Positions 6,010-50,269 of a DNA stretch of 64,000 nucleotides are shown in pieces. The notes beneath the pieces were generated by a model. It was given only the letters and a program-made list of their open reading frames with translations. It was not told the origin of the DNA and made no database searches. Made by a program: the position numbers and the translations under genes. Source of the DNA: a bacterium (GTDB lineage Bacteria; UBP18; UBA7526); contig JAUWYL010000002.1 in NCBI GenBank assembly GCA_030615855.1, forward strand, positions 68,423-132,422, given 5' to 3'. How positions within the stretch are numbered: position 1 is the stretch's first letter; the number at the start of each line of letters is the position of its first letter.

Positions 6010-7044
6010 TCAAAATAAAGCTTTGTTTTCTTTGACCCAGGAAATAAGTTTTTTCATTCCTTCTTTTGGGGTCACTTTTGGTTCCCAGTTTAAGGCCTTT
6101 TTAACCTTTGAGATATCTGAGATGTATACTTTTTGGTCGCTGGGGCGCCAATCGCTGAAGGTGATCTTGCTTCTCTTCCCTGTTTCTGCTTCTAAAAAAT
6201 CTAAAAATTCTAACAGAGAAGTGGTATTCTCTGGGCCACCACCAATATTGAAGACTGCATGCCTGAGATCACTTTCTATAAATTTATCATAGGCCTCTAT
6301 CAGATCAGTAACATAAAGAAGGTCTCTTACTTGCTTTCCATTGCCATAGATGGTAATCGGCTTGCTAAATAAAGCGGCAATAATGAACCAGGCCACCCAA
6401 CCCTGGTCTTCGAAGCCAAACTGACGCGTCCCAAAAATGCAAGACATGCGAAAGACTGCAGTCTTCATACCATAGATATGAGCATATTCTTGGGTATAGA
6501 TGTCTCCCACATATTTACTTACCCCATAGGGGGTATGGCCGGTGTGATCAATGGGTATCTTCTCCGAAATACCTTCTACTCCATCATAGATATAGCGTTC
6601 CTCCTTCTCTATCAAGGGAATTTTATCCACGTTTTCCCCATAGACTTTGTTAGTACTACAATAAATAAATACAGCATTTTTTGATTTCTTTCTCAGACAT
6701 TCCAAGACATTTAGAGTACCAAAGGCATTGATGCTGAAGTCCTCCCTGGGAATGCGTACGGATAGAGGAACCCCGGGCTGACCAGCAGTATGAATAACTA
6801 CATCCACTCCATCCCCAATGGCCTTTAAGACGTCTTTCTCATTCCGAACATCCCCCTTAATTCTCTTAATGTTATCATATTTTGCTAAATAGTTCCAGTT
6901 ATACTCCACGCTCTTCTTGTCATAGCCAAAGAGTTGAGAACGCATTAAGTTATCCAATACAATTACTTCATCGCCTTTCTTAGCATAATACTCTGCGGTA
7001 TGACTCCCCACTAATCCTGCTCCCCCAGTAACCAATACTCTCAT
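6010..7044 (-). CDS. NAD-dependent epimerase/dehydratase (CDP-paratose 2-epimerase-like)
   Basis: 344 aa. Motifs are VLVTGGAGLVGSH and YGVSK. Confidence 0.6.
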   Translation of the reverse strand: MRVLVTGGAGLVGSHTAEYYAKKGDEVIVLDNLMRSQLFGYDKKSVEYNWNYLAKYDNIKRIKGDVRNEKDVLKAIGDGVDVVIHTAGQPGVPLSVRIPREDFSINAFGTLNVLECLRKKSKNAVFIYCSTNKVYGENVDKIPLIEKEERYIYDGVEGISEKIPIDHTGHTPYGVSKYVGDIYTQEYAHIYGMKTAVFRMSCIFGTRQFGFEDQGWVAWFIIAALFSKPITIYGNGKQVRDLLYVTDLIEAYDKFIESDLRHAVFNIGGGPENTTSLLEFLDFLEAETGKRSKITFSDWRPSDQKVYISDISKVKKALNWEPKVTPKEGMKKLISWVKENKALF

Positions 7045-8066
7045 TCTCTCCTCCTCATAAAGTCTCGGAGATGACCTAAAACTGCTTTTCCAGCACGCCA
7101 GAAAAACTTCAGGTCTTCAATATTCCTGATGGATATTATCTTTCTAACTAAGAATCGGGGAGTGATAAAGGATTTATAGATGCCCTGAGTAAGTCGCATT
7201 ACCTCCTCATCCTTCATTCTGGTCTTCATGGCTGGCTGACTCATATCGAATCTGTCCCAATCCCCACTCTTTAACCAACCATTCTTCCTGCATTCCTCAA
7301 AGAGGACCGTTCCGGGATAGGGAATCATAATGGTTGCCTGCAGAGAATCTATCAAGCCTTTACTAAACAAGTCCTTTGTCATCTGAATAGTCTTCTCTGC
7401 TTCCACCTTTGTCTCCCAGGGATAACCAACCATACAGGTAACGTGAGGCTCAAGACGACCTTTAACCTCCCTGTTTGCCTTTTTGACCTCTCCTAACTCC
7501 TTTTCAATGGCAGCAATTTCTATGTCTTTATTTAACCTATTAATCGTTTCCTGACTCGCCGATTCAAGCCCATAAAGTAAAAACCTGAAACCCGCCTTAG
7601 CCATTAGTTGGTAATCTTCTCTGGTTAATGCTCCAAAGCGCAGATTGCAATTGAAATTAATCCTTTCATTATAACCTCTTTTTATCATCCCCTGACAAAA
7701 TTCTCGCAGCCATTCACCCGCAGGAAAAGTACCGGTATCACCCATTATCTCCCGAATGTGATATTTTTCGATAAGTTCCCCTATTTCATCTAAAACATTC
7801 TCCACCGACCTTACCCTCCAGGTAGGATAGAGAGTGGTCCAGGAACAGAAGGTGCAGCCACCGTTTCTGCGCCACCAACAATCGCGACCTGCCATAATAT
7901 AAGTCCCGGGAGTTAATTTATAATTTCCATTCTCATAAGCATAGAGTTTCCATTTAGTTAAATCACGGTCAATGACAGGTAAAGAATCTAAATCATGATT
8001 TAATTGAAAACGGCCAGTGTTTTTGATTTCACCGTTTTCACGATACCAGATGCCGGGCCCCAAATC

Positions 8067-8098
8067 GGTGAACGGTGAACGGTGAACGGTGAACGGTT
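8067..8098 (-). repeat. (CGGTGAA)4 heptanucleotide tandem repeat inside the B12-rSAM ORF
   Basis: There are four perfect copies. It is in-frame and encodes PFTVHRSPFT. Confidence 0.9.
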
Positions 8099-8208
8099 TT
8101 CTTAAAGCTTGGCAGAGGTTGAGGAGAAGGAAGTCATAGTCGCCACCGGTTAATACATAATCAACTTGAGAATTGTGGAAGGACTCCTCTGGGAGGGCGG
8201 TAACATGG

Positions 8209-8529
8209 TCACCAAATAAGACGGTTTTGAGTTTTGAGTTTATCAATGATCTTCCAGTGCTGCTTAATTACCGGGGTTTTGGTCTCCATAGCAATAATAT
8301 CCGGATTTTCTTTTTTCACTTCGTCTAACCATTTCTCGTAAGTCCATTTCTCTGCTATTCCATCCAGCCAGATAACCTCATAACCCGCATTCTTAAGCAT
8401 AGTCGCTGCCAGAGCAGGAACTACAGGATAGATATAGGTAGGGTTATGGAACCATTGGAATTGCCTATTCTGACTTAATAGAGGACATCCTGGCCCTTTT
8501 AAGGGAGGATAAGATATCATTACTTTCAC
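8209..8529 (-). pseudogene. B12-binding (cobalamin-binding-like) N-terminal domain of the same radical SAM gene
   Basis: 106 aa: MKVMISYPPLKG...AATMLKNAGYEVIWLD, typical of the B12-rSAM N-domain. It stops 38 nt inside the next ORF. The frame break coincides with an (AAACTCA)2 heptamer repeat. Confidence 0.55.
8224..8242 (-). repeat. (GTTTTGA)2+ heptamer repeat at the B12-rSAM frame break
   Basis: The sequence is GGTTTTGAGTTTTGAGTTTA. The stop of the N-terminal ORF and the start of the C-terminal frame both fall within or adjacent to it. Confidence 0.85.
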
Positions 8530-8554
8530 CCCGTTAGACCTCCTCGTATAATAT

Positions 8555-8688
8555 GTTACTACACTTCGTTGTTACTATCGGTTACTACGCTCCGCTGTTA
8601 CTAACGGTTGCAGTAACTGTTAGTAACCCCTGCCTGCCGAAGCCTTGGCGTAGGCAGGCTTAGTAACCCTTTAGTAACTGCTAGTAAC
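8555..8688. promoter_or_regulatory. Phased array of 4 GTTACT and 5 AGTAAC hexamers at 10-16 bp spacing around a central GC-rich hairpin
   Basis: GTTACT occurs at 8555, 8571, 8581 and 8597. AGTAAC occurs at 8622, 8632, 8662, 8673 and 8683. The central stem is CCTGCCTGCC...GGCAGGC. The array lies upstream of the split B12-rSAM gene. Confidence 0.5.
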
Positions 8689-8723
8689 CTTCTTCATATT
8701 TGCGCATTACTTTTAAGCAATTC

Positions 8724-10793
8724 CTATTCCTCTTTCAACCTGCGAGAGAATAGACCTTTCAGGAACAAGACTCCATAAGTGAGGTTAGTAGCAGTGATGC
8801 CAAAGAATACCAAAAGAACCTTTTTGGGATCTCTATTCTTCAAACTGGTTAAAAGAACCATCAATAAATAAAAGAGAATGGTCCCGAAATAAATTTTATA
8901 GAAAAGAGGTTGGATAAGTCCCAATGACCAACCAAAGAATAGGCCTAAAACAAAGAGAGAAGGGATAAAATAAGAGAACCTACGTGAGGTGTGAGGAAAT
9001 CTTTTGGCAAAATATCCTCTGTGTAAAGCATAGCCCCGGACCTGTTTTAAATGGGGAATAAATAACGGACGGCGGTGGTGGTAAATGAGAACCTTAGGAG
9101 CATACATTATCTTCTTTCCTAAATCTCGGACAATATGGAGGCAGAGTTTAGTATCCTCTCCTGGCCAGAATTTAACCCCAAAACCTCCCAGGCTATCCAT
9201 AATCGATTTTCGAATGAGAAGGTTACAAGTAGGAAAGTCATCGACCTCCCTTTCTCGTTTAGGAATATAGCGATAACTTATACTTCCTGTAGCCAGAAGA
9301 GATGAATAAACCAAACCACTTGCTTGTTCTCTGAGACCATCATTGGGAGGGGTTATCCCAGGCCCTCCGATGGCTGCTACCTTCTCATCCTCAAAGTAGG
9401 GCATGGCATTCCCGAGCCAATCTTTTGTGGGAAAGGCATCATCATCCAGAAAGGCTAAGATTTCTCCTCGAGCATGCTTAATTCCAATATCCCTCTTCTC
9501 CGAAGGTCCAATTGCTCCAGTAGGAATGACCTTCACTTTGGAATAGGATAATTGCTCCGTCTTATCTGGTAATACAATAATTTCATAATTCGGATAATCA
9601 AGTCTCTGGCAATAATTGAGACACTCTTGCAGGTTTTGGTTATTGCTTTGAACAGGGATAACGATTGAAACTAAAGGAGTTTTTGTTACTTTTTGCTTTG
9701 CAATTCTCTCTAATATAGAAAGACTTTTCTGAGCAGAGCGATCCCAGTTAAAATCTTGGGAATATTTTAAGGCATTCTGAGATAATTTTTTGTATAGCGC
9801 CTTATCATTTAATAATCTTAAAATATTCTTTGCCAAGAGGGCTGGTCTATTCTGAGAACAGATTAAACCAGTCTGGTTATCTATAGTAGAGTCTCTCAGG
9901 CCGCTAACATTATAGACCACGGTAGGAATACTCATAGCATGGGCCTCAGTAATTGCTAAGCCCCATCCTTCTTTTACCGAAGTCATAACCAATACCCAGG
10001 CACTCCGCAAGAGTCGCAACTTTTCTCTATGCATCTTATATCCGAAGAACCTCACGTCCTGTAAGTTTAGTTTCTTCACCAACCTTTGTAATTTATTCTG
10101 ATAAGCCTTGTCTCCTTCACCCACCAGCCACAATCTGGCCTCAGGCATCTCCTCTTTTACTCGCCTAAAAGCCTTAATAATATGATGGATCCTCTTTGAC
10201 TTTTTGAGTCTCCCCACATAGGCGACAGTGGGAAGAGAACTTCTTTCTGGAACCTGAGAAAGTGGCGAAAAACCAAGGCCTACAGGAACAATATGAACCT
10301 TTTCCCCTTGAAAGCCGAAATGAACCAGGTCCTTTTTAGTACTCTGAGAAATAGTAACTACTGGAATGTTTTTGTAAATTCTTAAATATAGCGGCTCTAA
10401 TAAATAACCTATTATTGCCAGAAGAAGGGGTGATTCATAGAACCAGATTTTTCTACATAGTTGATGGATAGAAACAATTATTTTTTCTTTTACATAGAAG
10501 GGTGTGAAGAAAGGAATGGTATTTATTTCGTCAATGACCAAATCAAATTTTCCTTGGAAACATTTTTTATAGTAGCGAAAGGCCTGCCAGTAAACAGTAT
10601 ACTTATTGCCTGACCTTACAATATTGACCCCATCTATCGTTTCCTTCTTTAGACAATGAGGAAAGGCACTGGTAAACAGGGTAACCTCATGACCTGCTTT
10701 CACCCACCTCTTAGCATTCTCATGAGTTAATACCTCTGCTCCTCCCGCTAAGGGGTTCTTAATGTCTCGCCAGTTAAAAATCAGGATCTTCAT
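8724..10793 (-). CDS. Bifunctional glycosyltransferase: N-terminal GT4 (group 1) domain fused to C-terminal GT2 domain with TM helices
   Basis: 689 aa. The N-terminal half is GT4-like (EGWGLAITEAHAMSIP). The C-terminal half is GT2-like (LVSIVIPVQSNNQ...DDDAFP) and ends in hydrophobic helices. Confidence 0.7.
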   Translation of the reverse strand: MKILIFNWRDIKNPLAGGAEVLTHENAKRWVKAGHEVTLFTSAFPHCLKKETIDGVNIVRSGNKYTVYWQAFRYYKKCFQGKFDLVIDEINTIPFFTPFYVKEKIIVSIHQLCRKIWFYESPLLLAIIGYLLEPLYLRIYKNIPVVTISQSTKKDLVHFGFQGEKVHIVPVGLGFSPLSQVPERSSLPTVAYVGRLKKSKRIHHIIKAFRRVKEEMPEARLWLVGEGDKAYQNKLQRLVKKLNLQDVRFFGYKMHREKLRLLRSAWVLVMTSVKEGWGLAITEAHAMSIPTVVYNVSGLRDSTIDNQTGLICSQNRPALLAKNILRLLNDKALYKKLSQNALKYSQDFNWDRSAQKSLSILERIAKQKVTKTPLVSIVIPVQSNNQNLQECLNYCQRLDYPNYEIIVLPDKTEQLSYSKVKVIPTGAIGPSEKRDIGIKHARGEILAFLDDDAFPTKDWLGNAMPYFEDEKVAAIGGPGITPPNDGLREQASGLVYSSLLATGSISYRYIPKREREVDDFPTCNLLIRKSIMDSLGGFGVKFWPGEDTKLCLHIVRDLGKKIMYAPKVLIYHHRRPLFIPHLKQVRGYALHRGYFAKRFPHTSRRFSYFIPSLFVLGLFFGWSLGLIQPLFYKIYFGTILFYLLMVLLTSLKNRDPKKVLLVFFGITATNLTYGVLFLKGLFSRRLKEE

Positions 10794-10798
10794 TTAGA

Positions 10799-12772
10799 TC
10801 ACCGTCCACCGCTTACTTTCTCCCCTTCTCCGTTTCCCCGATTCACCCTTTCACTCATCCTTCGCCCCTCGTCCTCCCCTACTCTCACCTCAGGTTCAAT
10901 GGGTGGCGCCATTACTTCATAAACCTCTGCCTCTGGGAATGATTTAATCAGCCGCAACCCGGGTTGCTTTTTAATATCAGGTATCTCTCCAATAATGGCA
11001 ACTTCGTTACTTGTGGCGTATTTTTCAGGATGGAAGATGACATACTTTGCTCCCAGATGTTTCAGGATACCTGGAGTCTTAGGGTCTAAAATATCAACTA
11101 TTTCCTTTCTCACTTTATCAGCATGGGTGCCAGGCAAGGCGCCATTGACTAATCTCTTTTGATGGATCCTCTGCCAAAATAGATATTCAACATCATTCTC
11201 CATAGGATATTCAGCAACAATAAAATCGCCCTCTTGTTTGGAGAGCCATTCATAGACTGGAGGAGGATCAACAGCATTAATCATGGGGGCAGGAAAGGTA
11301 GGAGCAAATTCGATACAGATGAGCAAAACAATGAGAGCCACAAGGATTTCTCGCTTTTGGGGAGTCTTTATCTTCTGTAAAATACTGGCTAATCCTATAC
11401 CCGCTAAGACACTTACTGAGAGCATGACCAGAATGCCAAAGCGAGCATAACAGCGAAACATAGGAGCTATTTTATACATAAAGTAAGAAGGAAAGAATAT
11501 TCGAAAAGGACCAATATCTGTCCAGGGGGCATGGGAAAAGATCAGAGCCATAATCCCAGCGAAGAGGAAGAAACTCACTCCTTTCTGGGTTCTGGTTGAC
11601 CAGTTTGCCAGTTGGCCCGTTAGCCTGTTATCTGTATTTTGTTTTTGTGTACCCTTATTCACTTGTTTACTTATCAACTTGTTAACTAATTTATTCTTCC
11701 TCCTCCACTCTCGTATAGCAATAATTGAGAGAATAATTCCTACCCAACCGAGATAGAGGGTTTGCTCTACCGGGTGATAAACCTTGATAAAATTCCGGGT
11801 AAAACCTCCTATAAAGGGATTATCGCCTGAGGGTATGAGATAATGGAAGAGATGAGCAGAATAGGTAAAGAGGCCGCTAAAAGAGCGCTCATATCTCAGA
11901 GAAGCAAGAGCCGTTGGCTTGGGACTGAATACATTTTTCAAGATAGGATAAATAGCAGGCAGAATAATCGCCAGAGCAACCACCGTTGCCACTAACACCA
12001 CTCTCATTGTCTTAAGCGGTGATCGGTGATCAGTAATCAGTGATCGGTCTTTCTTTTCACCGGATAACCGGATAACCGGATAACCGGATAACCTCCTATT
12101 TCTCCACCCATACCACACCCGCCACAGGATAAATACTCCAGTAAAAATGGTCACAAAGTATCCATAATAATAATTGGAAAGAAAAACTAGGGAAAAAGCC
12201 AGAGCAGCGAGAATAGCACTCCCATAGGTTCTTCTTTCATCCAGATTAAAGAGAGCCAAAAAGAAAAGAGGTATCCATTGAATGTTGGCCAGGGTCAGAT
12301 GTTGATAAGAATGGGTAAAGTGAAAGGGGCAAAAGGCATAAATTATTCCCGCAATCAAACTAGCTAACTTGTTTTTGGTGAAATAGTAAACTAAATAGTA
12401 GGCTATAATAGCCGAAAGAAAGAAACTTGGCAGAACAGAAAAATTATAAGCGAAGACTTCACCAAATTTTAAAGATACAGGAAGTAGCAAGCTTTCCCAG
12501 AGAAAATGTCTGGTAGCAGCATAAGCGAAATTGACCCCATAAGGATAGGCGATCAGGTGACAAGTCTCCGGCGAAAGACGATGAAGATGGGCATATTTTA
12601 GCCACCAGAGATGCCAGACCGCTCCCAAAGCATCACCTCCCGAGCCATAAAGATGACTATTCATTTTGAAAATAGTTGGATAAGTGATTATTGAACTCAA
12701 TAAAATAAAAAATAGCAAGATTAAGATTTTATTCTGAATAGGTTTAAATTTAGAAAGAAATGTCTTTACCAT
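10799..12772 (-). CDS. Polytopic membrane protein, putative GT-C-fold glycosyltransferase/polymerase (YfhO/ArnT-like), with a C-terminal soluble domain
   Basis: 657 aa with more than 10 predicted TM helices and an Asp in the first extracytoplasmic loop (GSGGDA). One loop is encoded by in-frame STRs: (CGGATAAC)4 and (GTGATCG)-like repeats. Confidence 0.4.
   Translation of the reverse strand: MVKTFLSKFKPIQNKILILLFFILLSSIITYPTIFKMNSHLYGSGGDALGAVWHLWWLKYAHLHRLSPETCHLIAYPYGVNFAYAATRHFLWESLLLPVSLKFGEVFAYNFSVLPSFFLSAIIAYYLVYYFTKNKLASLIAGIIYAFCPFHFTHSYQHLTLANIQWIPLFFLALFNLDERRTYGSAILAALAFSLVFLSNYYYGYFVTIFTGVFILWRVWYGWRNRRLSGYPVIRLSGEKKDRSLITDHRSPLKTMRVVLVATVVALAIILPAIYPILKNVFSPKPTALASLRYERSFSGLFTYSAHLFHYLIPSGDNPFIGGFTRNFIKVYHPVEQTLYLGWVGIILSIIAIREWRRKNKLVNKLISKQVNKGTQKQNTDNRLTGQLANWSTRTQKGVSFFLFAGIMALIFSHAPWTDIGPFRIFFPSYFMYKIAPMFRCYARFGILVMLSVSVLAGIGLASILQKIKTPQKREILVALIVLLICIEFAPTFPAPMINAVDPPPVYEWLSKQEGDFIVAEYPMENDVEYLFWQRIHQKRLVNGALPGTHADKVRKEIVDILDPKTPGILKHLGAKYVIFHPEKYATSNEVAIIGEIPDIKKQPGLRLIKSFPEAEVYEVMAPPIEPEVRVGEDEGRRMSERVNRGNGEGEKVSGGR
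12018..12093 (-). repeat. (GGTGATC)-like x4 and (CGGATAAC)4 tandem repeats inside the GT-C-like membrane protein ORF
   Basis: Both are in-frame and encode ..RLSGYPVIRLSG.. and ..DRSLITDHRSP.. Confidence 0.85.
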
Positions 12773-12809: not shown

Positions 12810-13973
12810 TTAAATAGGGGGGAGTGCCTTTTGGATTATTTGTATAAGATTAGCAGCATGCTTTTTCCAAGAATATTTCTGTGCCTTTCTCCAGGCGGAA
12901 TAGCCCATCCTTCTTGCCATCCTCTCATCTGCCACCAGTTTATCTATATATTCAGTATATGCTCTCAAATCTCCCTCTTGAGGAAAAAAACCATCTTCCC
13001 CATGAACAAACAAATCAGTAACACCAGACCCTCTGGGAATAATGGATGGGCAACCATGAGCAGCCGCCTCAAGCCCGGCCATACCAAAAGCTTCAAAAAT
13101 AGGATGGACTAGAACTCGGGCTTTCAAATATAGCTTATTTAGTTTCTCTTCACTAAGGGCTCCAGTTATCTCAACTCTTCCTTCTAATTTCCGCTCCTTT
13201 ATGCCAGTGCTAAAGGAGTGAAGTAGAGGTTGATCCCAGGAGCCAGCCATTATTAACTTTACCCTTTTGGCTCTAAGATTCTCCACTATATTTAACAAGA
13301 ATTCTGGTCGTTTTCCAGCATTCCATTTCGTGGATGATAAAATATAATCACCCCGTGTTTTGGGAATCTCAGTTAGAGAATAACAGCCAGGATGTAAAAC
13401 TTTAATCTTCTTGTTACCTAAAGTAGCTAATCTCTTCTGATGAACAGTAGAACATGTTATAGTGGCTAATGCATTCTTAACGATTAAAGCATCAAGGCCT
13501 CGGGCAAGGGGGAGTAAAAAAGGGGAAAGGAAACGAAGGAAAGAGGATGCATAAGCTCGGGGAAGAACATAAGAAATAGGGTCATAGATATAGGCAATAT
13601 AAGGAATATTTCTTTTTTTCCACAATCGGTAACTGGTAAAACAGGTATAAGTAGCATGAGTAATAACTACATCAAAATCTTCTCGCAGAATAATCTTTGG
13701 TACCAGATAGGGGCTAATAATGTGGAAAGTAGAGAAAAAACGAAAAAAGGGAAATTTTAAAGGATGGCGAAAAATGAAGGGGAATCTTTCGGATAAAAAT
13801 TTGATGGGTATCTTTCTTAATAGGTCATCATATTGGTAACCCTGGACTTTCTTTTTCATTAGCACCATTAATTCTACTTGCTGTCCCATTTCTCTTAAGT
13901 GTTTCACTTCTTCAAAGGCATATCTTGCCACACCCCCTACTAAGATCTGATCTAAAAGGATTCCAATTTTCAT
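12810..13973 (-). CDS. Family 4 (group 1) glycosyltransferase
   Basis: 387 aa with the GT-B C-terminal motif EAFGMAGLEAAAHGCPSI. Confidence 0.75.
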   Translation of the reverse strand: MKIGILLDQILVGGVARYAFEEVKHLREMGQQVELMVLMKKKVQGYQYDDLLRKIPIKFLSERFPFIFRHPLKFPFFRFFSTFHIISPYLVPKIILREDFDVVITHATYTCFTSYRLWKKRNIPYIAYIYDPISYVLPRAYASSFLRFLSPFLLPLARGLDALIVKNALATITCSTVHQKRLATLGNKKIKVLHPGCYSLTEIPKTRGDYILSSTKWNAGKRPEFLLNIVENLRAKRVKLIMAGSWDQPLLHSFSTGIKERKLEGRVEITGALSEEKLNKLYLKARVLVHPIFEAFGMAGLEAAAHGCPSIIPRGSGVTDLFVHGEDGFFPQEGDLRAYTEYIDKLVADERMARRMGYSAWRKAQKYSWKKHAANLIQIIQKALPPI

Positions 13974-15472
13974 TAGTGGTGAACTTCCTTTCCTAAAAAC
14001 TTTCTATCCAGATTCTTGGTTTTAGTAGAGATTATAAAATGATGAGAAGGCCACTTAACAATTCCATAGGGAATCTTGCTCCAAATCCAGCGTAAATCAA
14101 CATAATTCCACACTCCTTCTACTATTACTCTTGAATTGTTCTTTCTGAGCAGCCTTTTAACTTCTTTTAAAGAAAGAGGTTTCTCAACTGGCTGAGCTTT
14201 TAACCCAAGGATTCTCATCAGGAGAGGCCTTATAGCCTCTATTCCGTAAGGAAGTTTAGCATGAACAATATTGATTTGAATTCTTGAAACTCTTACCATT
14301 TCTCTAACGGCTTCTTCTTGATTGATGATATGTTCTAAAACTCCCGAGCTTAAGGAAACATCAAACTGATCATCACCAAAAGGGAGCTTTTCTGCAGATG
14401 CCTGAACCAACCTTTTAACCCCTCTTTTGTTCGCTCCAAGCAAAGCCTCAAAAGAGAAATCTACTCCCACAGTATTAGGAGAATACTTTTCGATAAAACC
14501 ATATCCACAACCGATATCTAAAGTCTTTTTTCCTTTTAATAAAGTTCCTAAAACTTCGTAATATTCCTCTTCTTCTCTAAAGCCTTTCCTTTTATGGATT
14601 TTATCATACTCTTTTTGAAACTTTCTAAATTTATCTCGGTTTCCTGATCGCCAACATTTATTTTTCAGATATCCCAGTCCACCTGCACTAAATTCACAGG
14701 TCTTCATAAAGATGAATCCCAAGGTATGGATGGGATCCCTCATCAGTCTTTTCCAGTGACGGAAGAAGGCAGGTCTAAAGATTGTAGCCTGTTTAGCGAA
14801 TAAATCTGGATGTTTTCTCCTGTAGAAATCGATGGTCTGGGCGTAATAAAATTTCTTCTTTATACTATCCCATAGAGTCAAATGACCTTCGTGGTGGATA
14901 ATGTGAGATGGAATGCGAGTTATTTTGTATCCTGCTTCTTTTATTCTCTGAGGAAGATCGTATTCTTCTCCGCCCCCAGCAATCCGTTCATCGTATCCTT
15001 TCATTTCCTTAAAAATTTCCTTTTCAAAGAAACGAGCTGCTTCCATAATTTCATCACCAATGTAGCAGGACCGCTCCAGGGCCTTACACCTTGCCCAGAA
15101 GCCTTCCCCTACTGATATTTCGGGAATGACTAGCCCTTTAATCTCCTTCCTTTTCTGGATTTCCTTTATGCACTCCTCGACTACCTGGGAAGTGAGTTCC
15201 ATATCGGAATCAATGAAAAGTAAATATCTTCCTCCTGCCTTCTCTGCCCCAAAGTTCCGTTGCACACTTCTCTCCGGTCCTTTACGGTATACCTTAGCAT
15301 ATTGATCCGCAATCTCCCTTGTTCCATCCTGGCTATAGTTATCTACCACAATGATCTCAATCTGAGAATAAGTTTGATCCCTAATTGATTTAAGGCAAAT
15401 ATTAATAGTTTCTGCAGAATTTTTGGTAGGAATAATTATTGAAACTAAAGGTTCTTTGTTCAGTTTATTCAT
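13973..15472 (-). CDS. Bifunctional GT2 glycosyltransferase / class I SAM-dependent methyltransferase
   Basis: 499 aa. The N-terminus is GT2 (LVSIIIPTKNS...DNYSQDGT...DSD). The C-terminus carries methyltransferase motif I (LDIGCGYG) followed by later motifs. Confidence 0.7.
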   Translation of the reverse strand: MNKLNKEPLVSIIIPTKNSAETINICLKSIRDQTYSQIEIIVVDNYSQDGTREIADQYAKVYRKGPERSVQRNFGAEKAGGRYLLFIDSDMELTSQVVEECIKEIQKRKEIKGLVIPEISVGEGFWARCKALERSCYIGDEIMEAARFFEKEIFKEMKGYDERIAGGGEEYDLPQRIKEAGYKITRIPSHIIHHEGHLTLWDSIKKKFYYAQTIDFYRRKHPDLFAKQATIFRPAFFRHWKRLMRDPIHTLGFIFMKTCEFSAGGLGYLKNKCWRSGNRDKFRKFQKEYDKIHKRKGFREEEEYYEVLGTLLKGKKTLDIGCGYGFIEKYSPNTVGVDFSFEALLGANKRGVKRLVQASAEKLPFGDDQFDVSLSSGVLEHIINQEEAVREMVRVSRIQINIVHAKLPYGIEAIRPLLMRILGLKAQPVEKPLSLKEVKRLLRKNNSRVIVEGVWNYVDLRWIWSKIPYGIVKWPSHHFIISTKTKNLDRKFLGKEVHH

Positions 15473-18896: not shown

Positions 18897-18965
18897 CTCA
18901 AGTTGACAAGTTGATAAGTTGATAAGTTGATAAGTAAAAAGTAAGAAGTATGAAGTATGAAGTAA
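18897..18965. repeat. Octamer/heptamer STR block: (AAGTTGAC/AAGTTGAT)4, (GAAGTAT)3, (ATTTTGC)2
   Basis: The sequence is caagttgacaagttgataagttgataagttgataagt...gaagtatgaagtatgaagtaa...attttgcattttgcatt. The GTTGACAAGTTGAT word also occurs at 17753. Confidence 0.85.
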
Positions 18966-19012: not shown

Positions 19013-19954
19013 TTATCTTTCCCACTTTCTCACCGGCTCACTTTCAGATGTTTTTAGATACTCCTTCAATGCTTCCTGCCAAGGTCTTAATGGTTCACCT
19101 ACTGTTTTAATATAGCGATTATTATCCAGAACAGAAAACTTTGGCCTTTTTGCTGGACGATTCAATTCTCCAGAAGAAATGGGTTTCAGCGATGGGGGAT
19201 GTGCGATGTGCAATGTGTGAATGATTTCCTGGGCAAAATCACACCAGGAACAGGAACCACTATTGGAAATGTGGTAGATGCCAAATGTATCTGTATGATG
19301 TGTGATGTGTGATGTGTGATGAAGTAATTTACCTATTGCGTGAGCGAGATCTTTGGTATAGGTGGGGGAGCTAATCTGGTCATTGACTACTTTTAATTCC
19401 TTTTTCTCTTTGGCTAATTTTAATATGGTGTTAACAAAATTTTTACCGTGCTTTCCAAAAAGCCCAGAGGTTCGAATGATGAAGTATCTATCTAAAAGCA
19501 AAGAAATATGTTTCTCTCCCTCTAATTTGCTTTTTCCATAGACGCTCAAAGGGTTAGGTTCATCGCTCTCAAGATAGGGCTCTTTCTTTTCTCCATCAAA
19601 GACGAAGTCCGTGCTGATATAAGCCATAACTGCCTTACACTCTTTGCAAGCGAGGGCTACATTCTGAGTACCAGTGCCATTTATTCTATAGACCAAATCC
19701 TCATTTTCCTCACAGCCATCGACATCCGTATAGGCGGCAGCATGAATCACAATCTCCGGCTTCGCTTCACAAATGTTTTTAATTATTTCTTCTTTACTTG
19801 TAATATCTGACTTGATATACTCCATTGATCCCAGATCCCAGATCCTAGATCCTGGATCTTTTACATCTATTCCGAACAGCTCATGCTCTTTTGATAGGGC
19901 CTCTACCAGATCCCTGCCCAGCATCCCACAAGCACCGGTAATTAAAATACGCAT
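19013..19954 (-). CDS. rmlD: dTDP-4-dehydrorhamnose reductase
   Basis: 313 aa. It has the RmlD pattern (short SDR; HAAAYTDVD; YGKSKLEGE). Two in-frame heptamer STRs, (CATCACA)4 and (GATCCCA)4, encode HHTSHITHH and [11 protein letters not shown]. Confidence 0.75.
19293..19323 (-). repeat. (GTGTGAT)4 heptamer STR inside rmlD
   Basis: The sequence is gtatgatgtgtgatgtgtgatgtgtgat, in-frame. Confidence 0.9.
19827..19858 (-). repeat. (GATCCCA)4-like heptamer STR inside rmlD
   Basis: The sequence is gatcccagatcccagatcctagatcctggatc, in-frame. Confidence 0.9.
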
Positions 19955-27423: not shown

Positions 27424-27533
27424 ATTTTCACTTTAATCAGGCCACAAGTCTCATGTTTAGGAAGCGGTGAATCGGTGAGCCGGTGAATCGGAGACTTTCT
27501 CCGTTTCTCCCCTTCTCCGTTTCAACATTTTTA

Positions 27534-27596
27534 CAGCCTGTAGCCTGGAGCCTGGAGCCTGTAGCCTGAAACCTGCAGCCTGAAGCCTGAAGCCTG
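27534..27596. repeat. (NAGCCTG)9 heptamer STR between the HTH-transaldolase gene and lptD
   Basis: The sequence is cagcctg tagcctg gagcctg gagcctg tagcctg aaacctg cagcctg aagcctg aagcctg. A second STR, (ATCGGTGA)-like, lies at 27463-27490. Confidence 0.9.
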
Positions 27597-27600
27597 CATC

Positions 27601-28614: not shown

Positions 28615-29946
28615 TCAGCCTTCCAGATAGGTTTTGGCTTCACCTATCGTATAGAGTGAGCCAGTAATAAGAACTATATCCCTCCTCTTTGCACAAGAGA
28701 GAGCATATTCAATCGCTTGAGAGACTTTTTCTTTAATTACTATAGAACCTAAATATTTCTTTGCTATTTCGGCTATCTCTTCTGGTTCTGCTGCCCGAGG
28801 GGTCTGAGGTCTGGTAATGATTATTCTGGAGGCTAAGGGTGCTAACTGGGCTACAATGCCCTTAATATCTTTATCTCTTAGAATACCCAGAAGGAGAATT
28901 AACCGCTTATAATTAAAAGAGTCTCTAATGGCTTCCTTGAGGGCCTTTACTCCTGCTACATTGTGAGCACCATCTAAAATTACCGTGAACCGTTTACCGT
29001 TTACTGTGAACCGTTTAACTTCCAATCTCCCGGGCCAGATGGTTTTGGCTAAACCTTTTCTTATCTCTTCTTTGCTAATTTTCACCTTTGTTCCTAAAAG
29101 TTCTACTACTTCTATAGCACAAGCAGCATTCAGCAATTGATGCTTGCCCAGAAGAGAAATCTTCAGACTCTCATATCTACTATAAATTCCTTGGACATTA
29201 AAGGTTTGCCCGACCCACCGCAGGTGGGTGCCCGCCAGTTTACCAGTTGACCAGTCATTTGGACTTTGGACAAGAATTTTTCTATCTACTCTATATAGTT
29301 TTGCTTGTTTCTTCCTGCAGGTTTGCTCTATCACAACCAATACTTCCTTCTTATTCTCTGCAGTAATGACTGGCACTTTCTTCTTAATGATCCCACATTT
29401 CTCATAAGCGATTCTCTTAAGGCTTCTTCCCAGATGCTCTGTATGCTCAAAATCAACATTAGTAATCACTGAGACCAAAGGTTTGGTGACATTGGTGGCA
29501 TCCAACCTCCCTCCCATCCCCACCTCTAAGATAGCAAAATCTACCCTTCGTTCTGCAAAATACTGCAGGGCTATAGCCGTAGTTATTTCAAAAAAAGTAG
29601 GCTGAAAACCGTAAACGGTAAACGGTAAACGGTAAACCTCTTTGACTAATTTAGTTAGTTCTTCCTTGGAGATTAATCCCTCGCTTGTCCTTATTCTTTC
29701 TCTGAAGTCAATTAGGTGGGGGGAGGTATAGAGCCCCACCTTATAGCCCGCTCCTTTTAAGATATAAAAAAGGAAGGCTCCCACCGAGCCTTTGCCATTC
29801 GTTCCTCCAATATGGATGACCTTTAATCTTTCTTGCGGATTCCCCAGTAATCTAAGAAGCCTTCTTATATTCTTTAATCCTAACCTTATCCCAAACCTCT
29901 GGAAACTCTCAAGGTATTTAAGGGTCTCTTGGTAGGTCATGATCAA
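28615..29946 (-). CDS. folC: Bifunctional folylpolyglutamate synthase/dihydrofolate synthase
   Basis: It has a Mur-ligase-type P-loop (HIGGTNGKGS) and a FolC domain order. Two in-frame GTAAACG-type STRs encode RLPFTVYGF and KRFTVNGKRFTV. Confidence 0.8.
   Translation of the reverse strand: MIMTYQETLKYLESFQRFGIRLGLKNIRRLLRLLGNPQERLKVIHIGGTNGKGSVGAFLFYILKGAGYKVGLYTSPHLIDFRERIRTSEGLISKEELTKLVKEVYRLPFTVYGFQPTFFEITTAIALQYFAERRVDFAILEVGMGGRLDATNVTKPLVSVITNVDFEHTEHLGRSLKRIAYEKCGIIKKKVPVITAENKKEVLVVIEQTCRKKQAKLYRVDRKILVQSPNDWSTGKLAGTHLRWVGQTFNVQGIYSRYESLKISLLGKHQLLNAACAIEVVELLGTKVKISKEEIRKGLAKTIWPGRLEVKRFTVNGKRFTVILDGAHNVAGVKALKEAIRDSFNYKRLILLLGILRDKDIKGIVAQLAPLASRIIITRPQTPRAAEPEEIAEIAKKYLGSIVIKEKVSQAIEYALSCAKRRDIVLITGSLYTIGEAKTYLEG
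28982..29018 (-). repeat. GTGAACCGTTTACC-type tandem repeat inside folC
   Basis: It is in-frame and encodes KRFTVNGKRFTV. Confidence 0.85.
29608..29638 (-). repeat. (CGGTAAA)4 heptamer STR inside folC
   Basis: The sequence is aaccgtaaacggtaaacggtaaacggtaaacc. It is in-frame and encodes RLPFTVYGF. Confidence 0.9.
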
Positions 29947-40581: not shown

Positions 40582-40617
40582 CGCCCCGCCCCATTTCCCC
40601 TACCTTATATTGCATTG

Positions 40618-40699
40618 TGGGCGAGAAAGGACTCGAACCTCCACGGGTTTCCCCACATGGTCCTAAGCCATGCGCGTCTACCAGTTCCGCCACTCGCCC
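40618..40699 (-). tRNA. tRNA-Leu (anticodon TAG)
   Basis: The reverse complement is GGGCGAG TG GCGG AACTGGTAGA CGCG CATGG CTTAGGA CCATG TGGGGAAACCCGTG GAGG TTCGAGT CCTT TCTCGCCC A. It has a long variable arm and CCA is not encoded. Confidence 0.8.
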
Positions 40700-40904
40700 A
40701 AAATTACTTATTGTTCGATTAATGAATGGGGCGGGGTAAATCTACCAATGGAGTTTATCCCGCACATTTATTGTGCGGGGCCACGTCCGCCCGCCTTCGT
40801 CCAACTTCTGCCTCTTTTCAGAGTAGACTTCGGCGGGCAAGCTTATTAAGATGGCTCGCCATCCGAAGCCTGCTACCTTAAAAATTCAGAAACAAGGCGA
40901 AGGA

Positions 40905-40980
40905 TGGTACCCCCACCAGGGCTCGAACCTGGGACACCCTGATTAAGAGTCAGGTGCTCTTCCAACTGAGCTATGGGGGC
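40905..40980 (-). tRNA. tRNA-Lys (anticodon CTT)
   Basis: The reverse complement is GCCCCCA TA GCTC AGTTGGAAG AGCA C CTGAC TCTTAAT CAGGG TGTCC CAGG TTCGAGC CCTG GTGGGGGT A CCA. Confidence 0.8.
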
Positions 40981-40982
40981 TG

Positions 40983-41012
40983 GTCCCGTTGATAACTTCG
41001 TATCTACGGGAC
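40983..41012. promoter_or_regulatory. 30-bp hairpin motif GTCCCGT-TGATAACTTCGTATCT-ACGGGAC immediately 5' of tRNA-Lys
   Basis: It has a 7-bp perfect stem and a 16-nt loop. A near-identical copy sits at 57528-57557 (27 of 30 nt match). It is flanked on one side by tRNA-Lys and on the other by a tRNA-Arg 3' fragment. Confidence 0.5.
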
Positions 41013-41030
41013 TGGCGCGCCTGGTAGGAT
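41012..41030 (-). pseudogene. tRNA-Arg(TCT)-like 3'-end fragment (part of the T-stem, the acceptor 3' strand and CCA)
   Basis: The reverse complement is AATCCTACCAGGCGCGCCA. The intact tRNA-Arg(TCT) 3' end reads AATCCTGCCGGGCGCGCCA. The fragment abuts the 30-bp hairpin motif. Confidence 0.45.
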
Positions 41031-41177
41031 TTTTACCCCGTTAGATGTTCTTGTCTCACTCGCCTCGCCTACTCCCTTAGATGGATGCTACGCCTATCTC
41101 ACGGGATAAACGACACAATCTATCTAACGGGGCGGGCCCACGACCTAGTGGTCCGACCTCGCCAAATGCGACTCTAG

Positions 41178-41251
41178 CGCCTCCGGAGGGAGTCGAACCC
41201 CCAACTTTGTGGTCCGAAGCCACACGCTCTATCCAATTGAGCTACGGAGGC
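41178..41251 (-). tRNA. tRNA-Arg (anticodon TCG)
   Basis: The reverse complement is GCCTCCG TA GCTC AATTGGAT AGAGC G TGTGG CTTCGGA CCACA AAGTT GGGGG TTCGACT CCCTC CGGAGGC G. Confidence 0.8.
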
Positions 41252-41255
41252 ATTT

Positions 41256-41284
41256 GCGGGGCTAATCCGCTGAGCTACAGGCGC
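41256..41284 (-). pseudogene. tRNA 5' fragment (Arg-TCT-like acceptor and D-arm: GCGCCTGTAGCTCAGCGGATTAGCCCCGC)
   Basis: It is identical over the first 16 nt to the 5' end of the intact tRNA-Arg(TCT) at 41672-41748. No anticodon or T-arm follows. Confidence 0.45.
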
Positions 41285-41461
41285 TGAAACACGGATAGGC
41301 ACAGATTTCAGACACAGATGATCACAGATTTACAACAATGCGCTTCGCCTGCCTCGTCTAAACAAGAACCTGACTTCGTTAGAACCTTGTTTATCCGCGG
41401 AAATCCGTAATCCATCCGTGCTAATCTGTGTTCTGGGGTGGCTGATCCCGATTTTACTTAT

Positions 41462-41539
41462 TGGGGTGAGCGAGGGGACTCGAACCCCCGACCACTTGAG
41501 CCACAGTCAAGTGCTCTAACCAACTGAGCTACGCTCACC
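41462..41539 (-). tRNA. tRNA-His (anticodon GTG) with a genomically encoded G-1
   Basis: The reverse complement is G GTGAGCG TA GCTC AGTTGGTTA GAGC A CTTGA CTGTGGC TCAAG TGGTC GGGGG TTCGAGT CCCCT CGCTCAC C CCA. The extra 5' G pairs with C73, the hallmark of tRNA-His. Confidence 0.8.
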
Positions 41540-41563
41540 ATTTTACTAAAATTAAAATCGGGA

Positions 41564-41613
41564 CGACCACCTGGGCCACAACCAGGTGCTCTAACCAACT
41601 GAGCTATAGCCAC
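41564..41613 (-). pseudogene. Truncated tRNA-His(GTG)-like copy (acceptor 5' strand, D-arm and anticodon arm; no T-arm or 3' acceptor)
   Basis: The reverse complement is GGTGGCT AT AGCTCAGTTGGTTAGAGCAC CTGG TTGTGGC CCAGG TGGTCG. It then diverges into AT-rich sequence. It lies 25 nt upstream of the intact tRNA-His. Confidence 0.5.
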
Positions 41614-41671
41614 CAAATTTTTGTCCCACAAAAATTTGATCTTGAACCATCCCTCGCTTATCAGTTCGGGA

Positions 41672-41748
<77 letters not shown>

Positions 41749-41810
41749 CTCGTCACTGGCATTCCCTGTTAGGCAAAGTTCTAGCTAGGCTACCCTTTGG
41801 CATAAAAGAT

Positions 41811-42560
41811 TTATCGCCAAGCATGAAAAACCATTCTGTTCTGTTGGATTGCCTGAAAGAATGGCCGGCGGGGCTTTTTTATCTTACGACGGATAGCTCT
41901 CGCCACTCTGCGGGAAAGAGAGCGGTATTGTGAAACTATCCTAATCTTTCGGAATCCAACAGTTTTTAACATAGCTTCCACAGCAGCAGGATTTGGCCCC
42001 CACCAACTCGTTGGATCATTCGATAATTCTGCTTCAGGATAAAACCTCATGACTGGACATTTAGTCAAAGCCATGTCTACATATGTCTCTAGTACCAATT
42101 GATCTCCAGTGACATTGAAAACTCGTTCAAGAGCAAAAAGGGGGTGACGTAAATGATAAAGCACTCCCAGTAATAGAACTAAATCAAAAACACCGACTTT
42201 ATCAGGAGAAATGTCATACACATCCATTTCCATATCCTCAACTTTGGAATTGAGAGTTTTCCGTGCAAGCTCAAAACCTGCCTTCGTACCCCATCCTTCT
42301 CTATTTTCTTCATTCCAACAAGGTAAATCAGTTGCCAGAACACGCTTGGCTCCGCGACGCTCCGCTTCAAATGAATAAAATCCATCCCAAGCACCTATAT
42401 CAAGCACGGTCTTTCCTCGTAGATTTTCAGGAAGTTTAAGTATCTTTTTCCAGTCTTTACGAGGATCAATACAGCCAGGTGTTATTACTCCATTCCCTAA
42501 GTCAATCGTGTGCCACCACTTGATTTTCGCTACTTCTTTTTTTAAATCATTTATATTCAT
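41811..42560 (-). CDS. Class I SAM-dependent methyltransferase (TIGR04290-like)
   Basis: 249 aa: MNINDLKKEVAKIKWWHTIDLGNGVITPG... Motif I is VLDIGAWDG. Confidence 0.6.
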   Translation of the reverse strand: MNINDLKKEVAKIKWWHTIDLGNGVITPGCIDPRKDWKKILKLPENLRGKTVLDIGAWDGFYSFEAERRGAKRVLATDLPCWNEENREGWGTKAGFELARKTLNSKVEDMEMDVYDISPDKVGVFDLVLLLGVLYHLRHPLFALERVFNVTGDQLVLETYVDMALTKCPVMRFYPEAELSNDPTSWWGPNPAAVEAMLKTVGFRKIRIVSQYRSLSRRVARAIRRKIKKPRRPFFQAIQQNRMVFHAWR

Positions 42561-42788
42561 AATACCCTTCCTCCCTATGGAATTTCGTCTAACGGAAAAT
42601 AATTGAGATACTTCGTTTATGTCCAGTTCTCACTTTTTATCCGTGCTTATTCGTGTCGTTATCCGTGTTCGTGGTCGGGGTGCCGAGATTTGCCCGCCTC
42701 CGCCAGAGGCGGATGAGCCTCGGGCTCAAGAGGTGGATCCGCCTTCAGCGGAAACTTGGACCTGTCCGATTGAGCCAATCTAATTTAA

Positions 42789-42867
42789 TGGTCGGGAAGG
42801 CGGGATTCGAACCCGCGACCTCGTGCTCCCAAAGCACGCGCGCTAATCCAAGCTGCGCCACTTCCCG
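42789..42867 (-). tRNA. tRNA-Pro (anticodon GGG)
   Basis: The reverse complement is CGGGAAG TG GCGC AGCTTGGATTA GCGC G CGTGC TTTGGGA GCACG AGGTC GCGGG TTCGAAT CCCGC CTTCCCG A CCA. The C1:G72 pair is typical of bacterial tRNA-Pro. Confidence 0.8.
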
Positions 42868-49118: not shown

Positions 49119-49469
49119 GTGGAGGCGAGGGGAATCGAACCCCTGTCCAGGAATATTTCTCTAAGGGCGCTACATGCTTAGCCAACATTTTTCTCTCATC
49201 CCGATCACTCCTGTTAGCAGGATTGATCGGGACCAGTTTGATGTGTTTTCATCTCCTCTTCCTCAAACAAGAGGAGGAGACTATCCTGTGTTTCTGACAC
49301 CCACATCCCATCCCACAGGCGAGATGGGAGGAGCGTGCCTGCTCTTTAGCAGACGTAAGCTAATTGCTCGTTGGCAATTAAGTTTCTGCCAAATGTTTTA
49401 CGAGTCTTTTGGCGACCTCGACATGCTCCTTTTAGATTAAATACCCCTGTCGAAACCTTTTCGCCCCCC
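49119..49469 (-). ncRNA. ssrA: tmRNA (SsrA, transfer-messenger RNA)
   Basis: The reverse complement begins GGGGGGCGAAAAGGTTTCGACAGGGG, which is the tRNA-like 5' end plus the first pseudoknot. It ends ..GGACAGGGGTTCGATTCCCCTCGCCTCCA, the T-arm and acceptor. The predicted tag ORF is GCC AAC GAG CAA TTA GCT TAC GTC TGC TAA, with its stop inside a CTGCT/AGCAG hairpin. smpB lies 160 bp upstream. Confidence 0.85.
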
Positions 49470-49480
49470 TTCTTTCTACA

Positions 49481-49640
49481 GATTATCAGTATAGACGCCA
49501 GACAAGCTGGCTAAATTCTTCGCGGTGCTCAGAATGCAGACCATCAGAATGAGAATTCAGAATATCAGATTCCATTTGGCCTTCTGATAACTGACCTTCT
49601 CCATCTGGTATTCTGGTAATCTGATACTCTTTTACTTTCC
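49481..49640. repeat. Composite dispersed repeat, copy C, including the right copy of the 56-bp inverted repeat (49481-49539)
   Basis: The inverted-repeat partner is at 46655-46710. The ATCAGAATGAGAATTCAGAATATCAGATTC module is shared with 32170-32200. Confidence 0.75.
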
Positions 49641-50087
49641 TACTCTCCTACTTTTTAGTGCTCGCTCCATCTCCCTCTGGGCAGCCTTTCTCTTCAGTCT
49701 CTCCCTCTTGTCGTACTTTTTCTTACCCTTGGCTACAGCGATCTCAACCTTCGCCTTTCCCTCCTTAAAATAGATCTTTAAGGGAATTAAGGTCAGGCCC
49801 CTCTGCGAGGTTAGACCAATTAATTTCTTTATCTCCCTTTTATGAAGGAGCAACTTTCTTGGTCGGGTGGGCTCTGGCCCCGGAATGCCCTGATGGCTAT
49901 AGGGAGCAATATGTAAGTTATATAGAAAGACCTCATTCCCCTCGGTTCTGGCGAAACTCTCCCTCAGACTTACCTTTCCCATGCGCAAGGATTTTACCTC
50001 GCTACCCTTTAATACCACTCCGGCCTCAAAACTATCCAAGATATGGTAGTTATAGAGTGCTTTTCTATTGGTGGCAACAATCTTCAT
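49632..50087 (-). CDS. smpB: SsrA-binding protein
   Basis: 151 aa: NRKALYNYHILDSFEAGVVLKGSEVKS... Confidence 0.9.
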   Translation of the reverse strand: MKIVATNRKALYNYHILDSFEAGVVLKGSEVKSLRMGKVSLRESFARTEGNEVFLYNLHIAPYSHQGIPGPEPTRPRKLLLHKREIKKLIGLTSQRGLTLIPLKIYFKEGKAKVEIAVAKGKKKYDKRERLKRKAAQREMERALKSRRVGK

Positions 50088-50182: not shown

Positions 50183-50269
50183 TGGTGCCGCGGGAGAGAT
50201 TCGAACTCTCACAACCTCACGGCCACTACGCCCTGAACGTAGCGTGTCTACCGATTCCACCACCGCGGC
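50183..50269 (-). tRNA. tRNA-Leu (anticodon CAG)
   Basis: The reverse complement is GCCGCGG TG GTGG AATCGGTAGA CACG CTACG TTCAGGG CGTAG TGGCCGTGAGGTTGTG AGAG TTCGAAT CTCT CCCGCGGC A CCA, with a long variable arm. Confidence 0.8.

Follow-up and report, generated by a model that had tools for sequence, protein, structure and literature searches.

The DNA analysed here is a 64,000-nucleotide stretch, called the window below, of a metagenome-assembled genome (MAG) of a bacterium of the lineage UBP18, UBA7526 (assembly GCA_030615855.1, contig JAUWYL010000002.1, positions 68,423 to 132,422 of the forward strand). Its minus strand carries a glycan locus (801-22758), in which a B12-domain radical S-adenosylmethionine (SAM) gene is interrupted by a frameshift at a tandem repeat of the heptamer AAACTCA. 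This repeat is probably a length-unstable simple-sequence repeat (SSR) that gives ON and OFF alleles of a glycan-modifying enzyme. The two halves of the gene are the minus-strand open reading frames (ORFs) 8529..8209 (106 aa) and 8246..7041 (401 aa), which share 38 nt (8209-8246) in different frames. The split gene comprises the following features, in window positions:

8209..8529, minus strand: 5' fragment, 106 codons from a GTG start, the opening portion of a B12-binding-like Rossmann domain
7041..8246, minus strand: 3' fragment, 401 uninterrupted codons in the +1 frame, covering the radical SAM core and, before it, what remains of the Rossmann domain (VLFGDHVTALPEE...)
8224..8241, minus strand: tract 1, the frameshift site, (AAACTCA)2 + AAAC on the coding strand, a perfect period-7 run of 2.6 units (Tandem Repeats Finder)
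Flanks of tract 1: CACTGGAAGATCATTGAT and GTCTTATTTGGTGACCATG, with the AAACTCA units between them
8066..8097, minus strand: tract 2, an in-frame array that reads (CCGTTCA)4.6 on the coding strand and is translated as KPFTVHRSPFT
7845..7880, minus strand: cluster cysteines CWWRRNGGCTFC, Cx7Cx2C, with all three cysteines invariant in two alignments

The GTG start of the 5' fragment is preceded by a ribosome-binding site (RBS), GAGGAGG (8545-8539), and the N-terminus that it opens (MKVMISYPPLKG) agrees with the starts of the orthologues in the alignment. The fragment terminates at a TGA that is encountered solely owing to the frameshift. The 3' ORF has neither an RBS nor an ATG; its 401-aa product is present in the databases as protein P0008 (identity 100%). 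At the junction the upstream frame reads ...KIIDKLKTQNRLIW and then stops, and the downstream frame reads ...NSKLKTVLFGDHVTALPEE. A protein search returned homologues by the thousand, each encoded by a single ORF and 490-513 aa long; identity reached 84-88% in the best of them. The initial annotation had taken the two ORFs for consecutive parts of one enzyme and had placed the divergence of the frames inside (AAACTCA)2 plus a partial unit. We agree on both points: the coordinates, the end-to-end alignment of the HpnJ profile and the single-ORF homologues support the first, and the repeat run at 8224-8241, which lies within the ORF overlap, supports the second.

In silico, removal of one unit gave a single ORF of 493 aa and addition of two units a single ORF of 500 aa, as expected from the earlier claim that either change would restore about 500 aa. 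Tract 1 shares two properties with SSR contingency loci: it lies inside a reading frame and its repeat unit has a length not divisible by 3, and the number of units by itself toggles between an intact and a truncated ORF.

Tract 1 in orthologues and in a second assembly

At the junction the closest orthologues have KLKTQNSKLKTVLFGDH, identical to the construct with two added units. L001 and L002 carry a perfect (AAACTCA)4 in frame, L086, the closest relative (87% nucleotide identity), has four units with 1 substitution, and L003 has four degenerate units with 4 substitutions; the four-unit tract encodes KLKTQNSKLKT. When the orthologue flanks were aligned with the window at the DNA level, no second indel was found at the junction. 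Together with the four units of the orthologues, this makes the window allele a clean 14-nt, two-unit contraction. The arithmetic of the initial annotation was right; the natural ON state, however, corresponds to a gain of two units, as in the orthologues, and not to the loss of one. Judging from these alignments, the repeat copy number is the sole cause of the frameshift and four units is the natural ON state. L001 and L002 are 80.6% identical overall and their 33-nt tract is nevertheless identical, which fits slippage keeping the array homogeneous. Some homologues have loops resembling the one-unit state (DLKQFVT, DLKPLKT), which shows that the protein accepts more than one in-frame length.

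All seven close orthologous genes checked, and about 80 distant ones among the matches listed, are single ORFs, and the frameshift is therefore not conserved. This weighs heavily against a frameshift that is decoded, either by programmed ribosomal frameshifting or by transcriptional slippage, and against an enzyme made in two pieces, although the tract is A-rich (AAAACTCAAAAC) and the frames do overlap. Decoding would require a +1 shift, for which there is no long homopolymer and no RF2-type site, and a shift at the stop codon would swap out the invariant L-x-G-D-H strand. As for two pieces, the break cuts through the Rossmann domain, and the 3' ORF lacks start signals of its own. With the frameshift unconserved, no suitable +1 site and an intradomain split, both candidates were rejected; we consider them highly improbable.

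The gene may instead be a recent plain pseudogene. A two-unit slippage deletion, in practice irreversible and without regulatory significance, would then have occurred once, and the longer allele would be the ancestral intact variant that persists elsewhere. The 2.6 remaining units are too few for frequent slippage, the genome has many arrays without apparent function, and glycan genes are frequently lost. However, no stop interrupts the 401 codons of the downstream frame, and all residues invariant in the family are preserved in the window gene (alignment), so that any inactivation must be recent. Further evidence on this point came from another assembly of the strain.

Two proteins encoded next to the gene in the window are also recorded in Logan assemblies of run SRR14872660, and the contigs concerned were compared with the window. 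They showed 0 mismatches over 6,570 + 2,151 nt, that is, over 8,721 bases outside tract 1. Contig L085 ends within tract 1 as ...GAT(AAACTCA)4AA and so holds at least 4 units, whereas in the window AAACCG comes after the second unit. In a de Bruijn simulation at k=31, the end of L085 was reproduced only with reads holding at least 5 units, alone or together with four-unit reads; a two-unit allele of comparable abundance would end the contig earlier. As the contigs read, the copy number of tract 1 differs between assemblies of one strain, or the MAG is wrong here. The other end of L085 lies in an 8-nt array (ACTTATCA) upstream of an rmlB-like gene (18900-18935), with at least 1 unit more than the window. 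The contig begins exactly 30 periodic bases ahead of the flank of this array, as is characteristic when the reads contain a longer array. At least two arrays thus differ on a mismatch-free background, which means that arrays mutate far faster than bases, or that the MAG is wrong at these places. Contig L084 begins within tract 2, although an array of 32 nt is not expected to interrupt a k=31 graph; in the simulation its start point was not reproduced by any simple mixture of alleles.

These comparisons tell against a pseudogene in three ways: the background of the two alleles is free of mismatches, the second array also differs between the assemblies, and the simulation suggests alleles of more than 4 units as well, which would mean more than one change at tract 1. 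We judge a plain pseudogene unlikely. They also raise the question of an assembly artefact, in which the organism's gene would be intact with at least 4 units and the two-unit tract would have been made when the MAG contig was built or merged. The longer tract of the Logan assembly is what an artefact would predict, the MAG is again the shorter of the two at 18900-18935, and tandem arrays are classic trouble spots. Against this, the MAG otherwise equals Logan base for base: the arrays in the YfhO gene, including a perfect 35-nt 8-mer array, are the same in both assemblies, as are the YfhO protein and the RmlD protein with its three arrays. The MAG thus does not systematically collapse repeats. 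Moreover, de Bruijn assemblers output solely k-mers that are present in the reads. The 18-nt tract and both its flanks fit one k-mer of at least 21, which would need a two-unit read; such an assembler cannot invent a k-mer spanning all three, and this argues that the two-unit allele is real, provided that the MAG was built in this way. An artefact is, in our opinion, a doubtful explanation.

Heptamer and octamer arrays and the interpretation of tract 1

Perfect period-7 runs of at least 17 nt were counted in the window and compared with the expectation from Markov-1 randomisations: 9 were present, for 0.12 expected. Period-8 runs numbered 3, for 0 expected. This excess, and the coincidence of tract 1 with the four-unit site of the orthologues, indicate that tract 1 did not arise by chance. 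A similar period-7 excess was found in close relatives, and among the matches listed the family loci L004-L083 also contain such runs in excess (36 in 820 kb). The window arrays are intergenic and also in frame within genes; arrays of the TAACTGA type and of GAACTCC showed no enrichment in the window.

Several glycan genes of housekeeping type carry such arrays in frame. The RmlD gene has three in-frame arrays (19189-19217, 19292-19321 and 19827-19858), the YfhO gene a 7-mer array and the perfect 35-nt 8-mer array, also in frame (12017-12093), and ORF 28615..29946 another three in frame (28980-29637). The in-frame 7- and 8-nt arrays of these three genes are translated in all three frames. The longest array of the window is an intergenic composite (27461-27598), in which two 8-nt arrays accompany a heptamer array with some 9 copies of AGCCTGA. 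Short 8-nt arrays (49603-49654) adjoin a gene for transfer-messenger RNA (tmRNA; tag ANEQLAYVC); the window also has seven tRNA genes, six of them clustered at 40617-42867 (tRNA and tmRNA ranges 40617-42867, 49119-49468 and 50183-50269). The UvrA protein encoded in the window shares 88-92% identity with proteins of other MAGs and 70% with that of Candidatus Calescamantes, the nearest match with a name.

At the site of tract 2 the orthologues have heptamer arrays with different unit sequences. The units found at the two loop sites (site 1 and site 2, those of tracts 1 and 2) include ACCGATC, GAACTCC, GCGACCC and CCAAGGT, some beside small palindromes. Heptamer arrays around a GC-rich palindrome form in-frame insertions in L087 (5785-7326, site 1), L086 (147-1715, site 2) and P0007 (site 2), and the peptide TPN.PSG.SSPLGTRGELRT occurs at site 1 of one orthologue and at site 2 of another. 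The recurrence of this peptide at different sites suggests that the palindrome-plus-array insertions are a mobile element entering in frame. L086 has, in addition, a 120-nt insertion (1712-1837) with inverted ends (CCCGCACCTT...AAGGTGCGGG) between its radical SAM gene and the following short-chain dehydrogenase/reductase (SDR) gene; at this boundary the window has a 4-nt overlap instead.

We favour, with a probability of roughly 0.55, the interpretation that slippage at tract 1 yields ON alleles (1, 4 or 7 units) and OFF alleles, and that the window assembly caught an OFF allele. The copy number of AAACTCA would set the reading frame of the radical SAM gene. Four units (or 1, or 7) would give the full enzyme of about 500 aa; with two units translation would end at 8209 and a functional enzyme would not be made. 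Other cells of the same strain would have longer tracts, and replication slippage would generate the ON and OFF alleles. The expected outcome is heterogeneity in one radical-SAM-dependent modification of a glycan sugar, with a possible polar effect on the overlapping SDR gene. The slipped-strand ON/OFF switch of the initial annotation is borne out as far as the copy-number frameshift and the differing copy number in the second assembly, on a mismatch-free background, are concerned. The remainder we infer: that both alleles are real and coexist, and that switching is frequent, reversible and useful to the cell, as in a selected switch.

Several observations weigh against such a switch. Tract 1 is short, from 2.6 to about 5 units, compared with the 6-38 units usual in described phase-variable heptamer tracts, although variation over 1-7 units has been reported at one locus (PMC2651432). 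A two-unit tract should slip rarely, and the OFF state may therefore approach a dead end. An out-of-frame allele was seen once only among the roughly 90 family loci listed, as would also be expected of a pseudogene. The case for two alleles is built on two assemblies, not on reads, and one of these assemblies is of undocumented origin and method; a pattern scan of metagenome contigs for the tract with 2-6 units returned only the contig already known. Lastly, 7- and 8-nt arrays are abundant in this genome, including those in frame in RmlD and YfhO, where the assemblies agree. Tract 1 may accordingly reflect general repeat instability instead of a dedicated switch, and may have arisen incidentally from a mutational bias of the whole lineage, without selection for switching.

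A broader view would treat the arrays as a genome-wide diversification layer, in which 7- and 8-nt arrays of many different units, some beside small palindromes and apparently mobile, colonise permissive protein loops and 5' regions and change in copy number far faster than point mutations accumulate; tract 1 would then toggle the gene ON and OFF and tract 2 would vary the length of a loop. We regard this as quite unlikely. If true, it would mean that an environmental candidate phylum has a system of contingency loci, and that arrays are inserted in frame repeatedly at the same two codon sites across orthologues. For the ON/OFF switch preferred here, the significance would lie, if both alleles are real, in a concrete case of repeat-driven variation of a surface-glycan enzyme in an uncultured free-living bacterium, far from the pathogens with known switches; phage or grazing pressure would be the likely driver. 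It also follows for practice that MAG genes frameshifted at short tandem arrays should not be labelled pseudogenes before the reads have been inspected.

The enzyme and the glycan locus

In the repaired protein, the Pfam domain Radical_SAM (PF04055) scored 42.4 bits, for a cut-off of 29.5, and the B12-binding domain (PF02310) 28 bits, slightly below its cut-off of 32.1; the latter domain is precomputed in most homologues. The profiles of HpnJ and BchE align along the whole repaired protein and across the junction. Neither equivalog assignment was reached at the NCBIfam cut-offs, with 127 bits against 577.6 for HpnJ and 101 against 481 for BchE. The cysteine motif is Cx7Cx2C, as annotated initially, and not the canonical Cx3Cx2C. 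It is a trait of the family and not peculiar to this gene: of 120 homologues, 97 have Cx7Cx2C and 20 have Cx4Cx2C. The radical SAM family is unusually well conserved, and members with 55-66% identity occur across Omnitrophota, Patescibacteria, Planctomycetota, Bathyarchaeia and Methanocaldococcus (among the matches listed, L004-L083).

An AlphaFold model was made for the orthologue P0006 (mean predicted local distance difference test score, pLDDT, 75). In this model tract 1 covers the last part of a helix together with the loop that leads to the following Rossmann strand, and tract 2 lies in a disordered loop. Foldseek ranked AprD4, a diol dehydratase, first for this model, followed by MgmA, TsrM, OxsB, CysS and TokK, with a probability of 1.0 and template modelling (TM) scores of 0.5-0.63. 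The superposition on AprD4, MgmA, TsrM and OxsB spans both domains. A sequence search of the Protein Data Bank gave one weak match only (9ccb, E = 6e-7) and no solved structure close in sequence. Assignment as an AprD4-type diol dehydratase with a reductase partner was tried and rejected as a family feature: NF033070 scored 28 bits against 500, and an SDR gene adjoins only in the close clade, in 5 of the 76 loci with downstream room.

These results do not uphold the earlier proposal of a sugar C- or O-methylase. HpnJ and BchE, the best profiles, fall far short of the cut-offs, and AprD4, to which the fold is closest, belongs to the diol dehydratases and is no methylase, so that a B12-like domain alone does not imply methyl transfer. 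Some B12-like domains bind no cobalamin. The product is predicted to be a radical SAM protein of a class B-like type whose substrate is a sugar or glycan, with methylation as only one possibility.

The surrounding glycan locus encodes several SDR epimerases/dehydratases, a DegT aminotransferase, family GT2 and GT4 glycosyltransferases (GT), a GT2-methyltransferase fusion, a flippase, YfhO and RmlA/B/D-like enzymes. Immediately around the radical SAM gene lie:

6010..7044, minus strand: NAD-dependent epimerase/dehydratase (SDR) gene, with its own GGAGG, whose ATG overlaps the radical SAM stop (ATGA)
8527..8704, minus strand: leader region, an insertion of about 178 nt between the radical SAM gene and the upstream glycosyltransferase gene
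8724..10793, minus strand: GT4-GT2 fusion glycosyltransferase gene, upstream of the radical SAM gene in the same glycan locus

The setting in a glycan cluster was therefore annotated correctly, but not the adjoining methyltransferase fusions: the neighbours are the GT4-GT2 fusion and the SDR gene, and the GT2-methyltransferase fusion (13973..15472) is three genes away. The overlap of the radical SAM and SDR genes is also found in L001, L002, L003 and L087 and is absent from distant relatives. The leader insertion is bounded by a 9-nt direct duplication, AAAGTAATG (8705-8713 and 8518-8526). It carries 4+4 inverted GTTACTA heptamers (8 of the 12 copies in the window) around a GC hairpin, and it provides the RBS of the radical SAM gene. 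In L003, L087 and L088 the radical SAM and glycosyltransferase genes overlap instead. The insertion looks like a miniature inverted-repeat transposable element (MITE) and could affect expression of the radical SAM gene.

Comparison with known systems

The intragenic heptanucleotide tracts of Haemophilus influenzae that are candidates for phase variation, such as (AATTTTG)14 in hmw1A and (AACAACC)8-13 in a TonB-dependent receptor gene (PMC2651432), offer the closest parallel in layout. As in these SSR contingency loci, a repeat whose unit is not a multiple of three lies within a reading frame, production of the protein depends on the number of copies, the gene serves a surface structure, and the copy number apparently differs between otherwise near-identical genomes. 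The window tract is, however, shorter (2-5 units versus 6-38), and it is one of many 7- and 8-nt arrays, coding and non-coding; its host is an uncultured environmental bacterium and not a host-adapted pathogen.

Over-represented heptamers have been described as short tandemly repeated repetitive (STRR) sequences in heterocystous cyanobacteria, as GGGAATC in Xanthomonas and as TAACTGA in Beggiatoaceae, one proposed cause being polymerase slippage that favours 7-nt units (PMC4692102, PMC4679880). The window resembles these genomes in its genome-wide period-7 excess, in the few copies of each array and in lengths that vary between close relatives. It differs in that those repeats are mostly intergenic, with one or a few units per genome, whereas the window units are diverse and many are in frame.

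The predicted enzyme follows class B radical SAM proteins (AprD4, MgmA, TsrM, OxsB, CysS and TokK by fold, HpnJ and BchE by profile) in its order of domains, with a B12-like Rossmann domain at the N-terminus and a radical SAM barrel after it. It departs from them in its 13-16% identity to any solved structure, in NCBIfam scores far below the cut-offs and in the family motif, Cx7Cx2C or Cx4Cx2C versus Cx3Cx2C, while its use of cobalamin is a prediction.

Rickettsia palindromic elements (RPE) are selfish repeats inserted in frame in protein genes. The palindrome-plus-array insertions of the orthologues L086, L087 and P0007 are likewise in frame, and one peptide occurs at different sites. Unlike RPE, they are flanked by heptamer arrays and are found in relatives, not in the window gene, and their mobility is a matter of inference.

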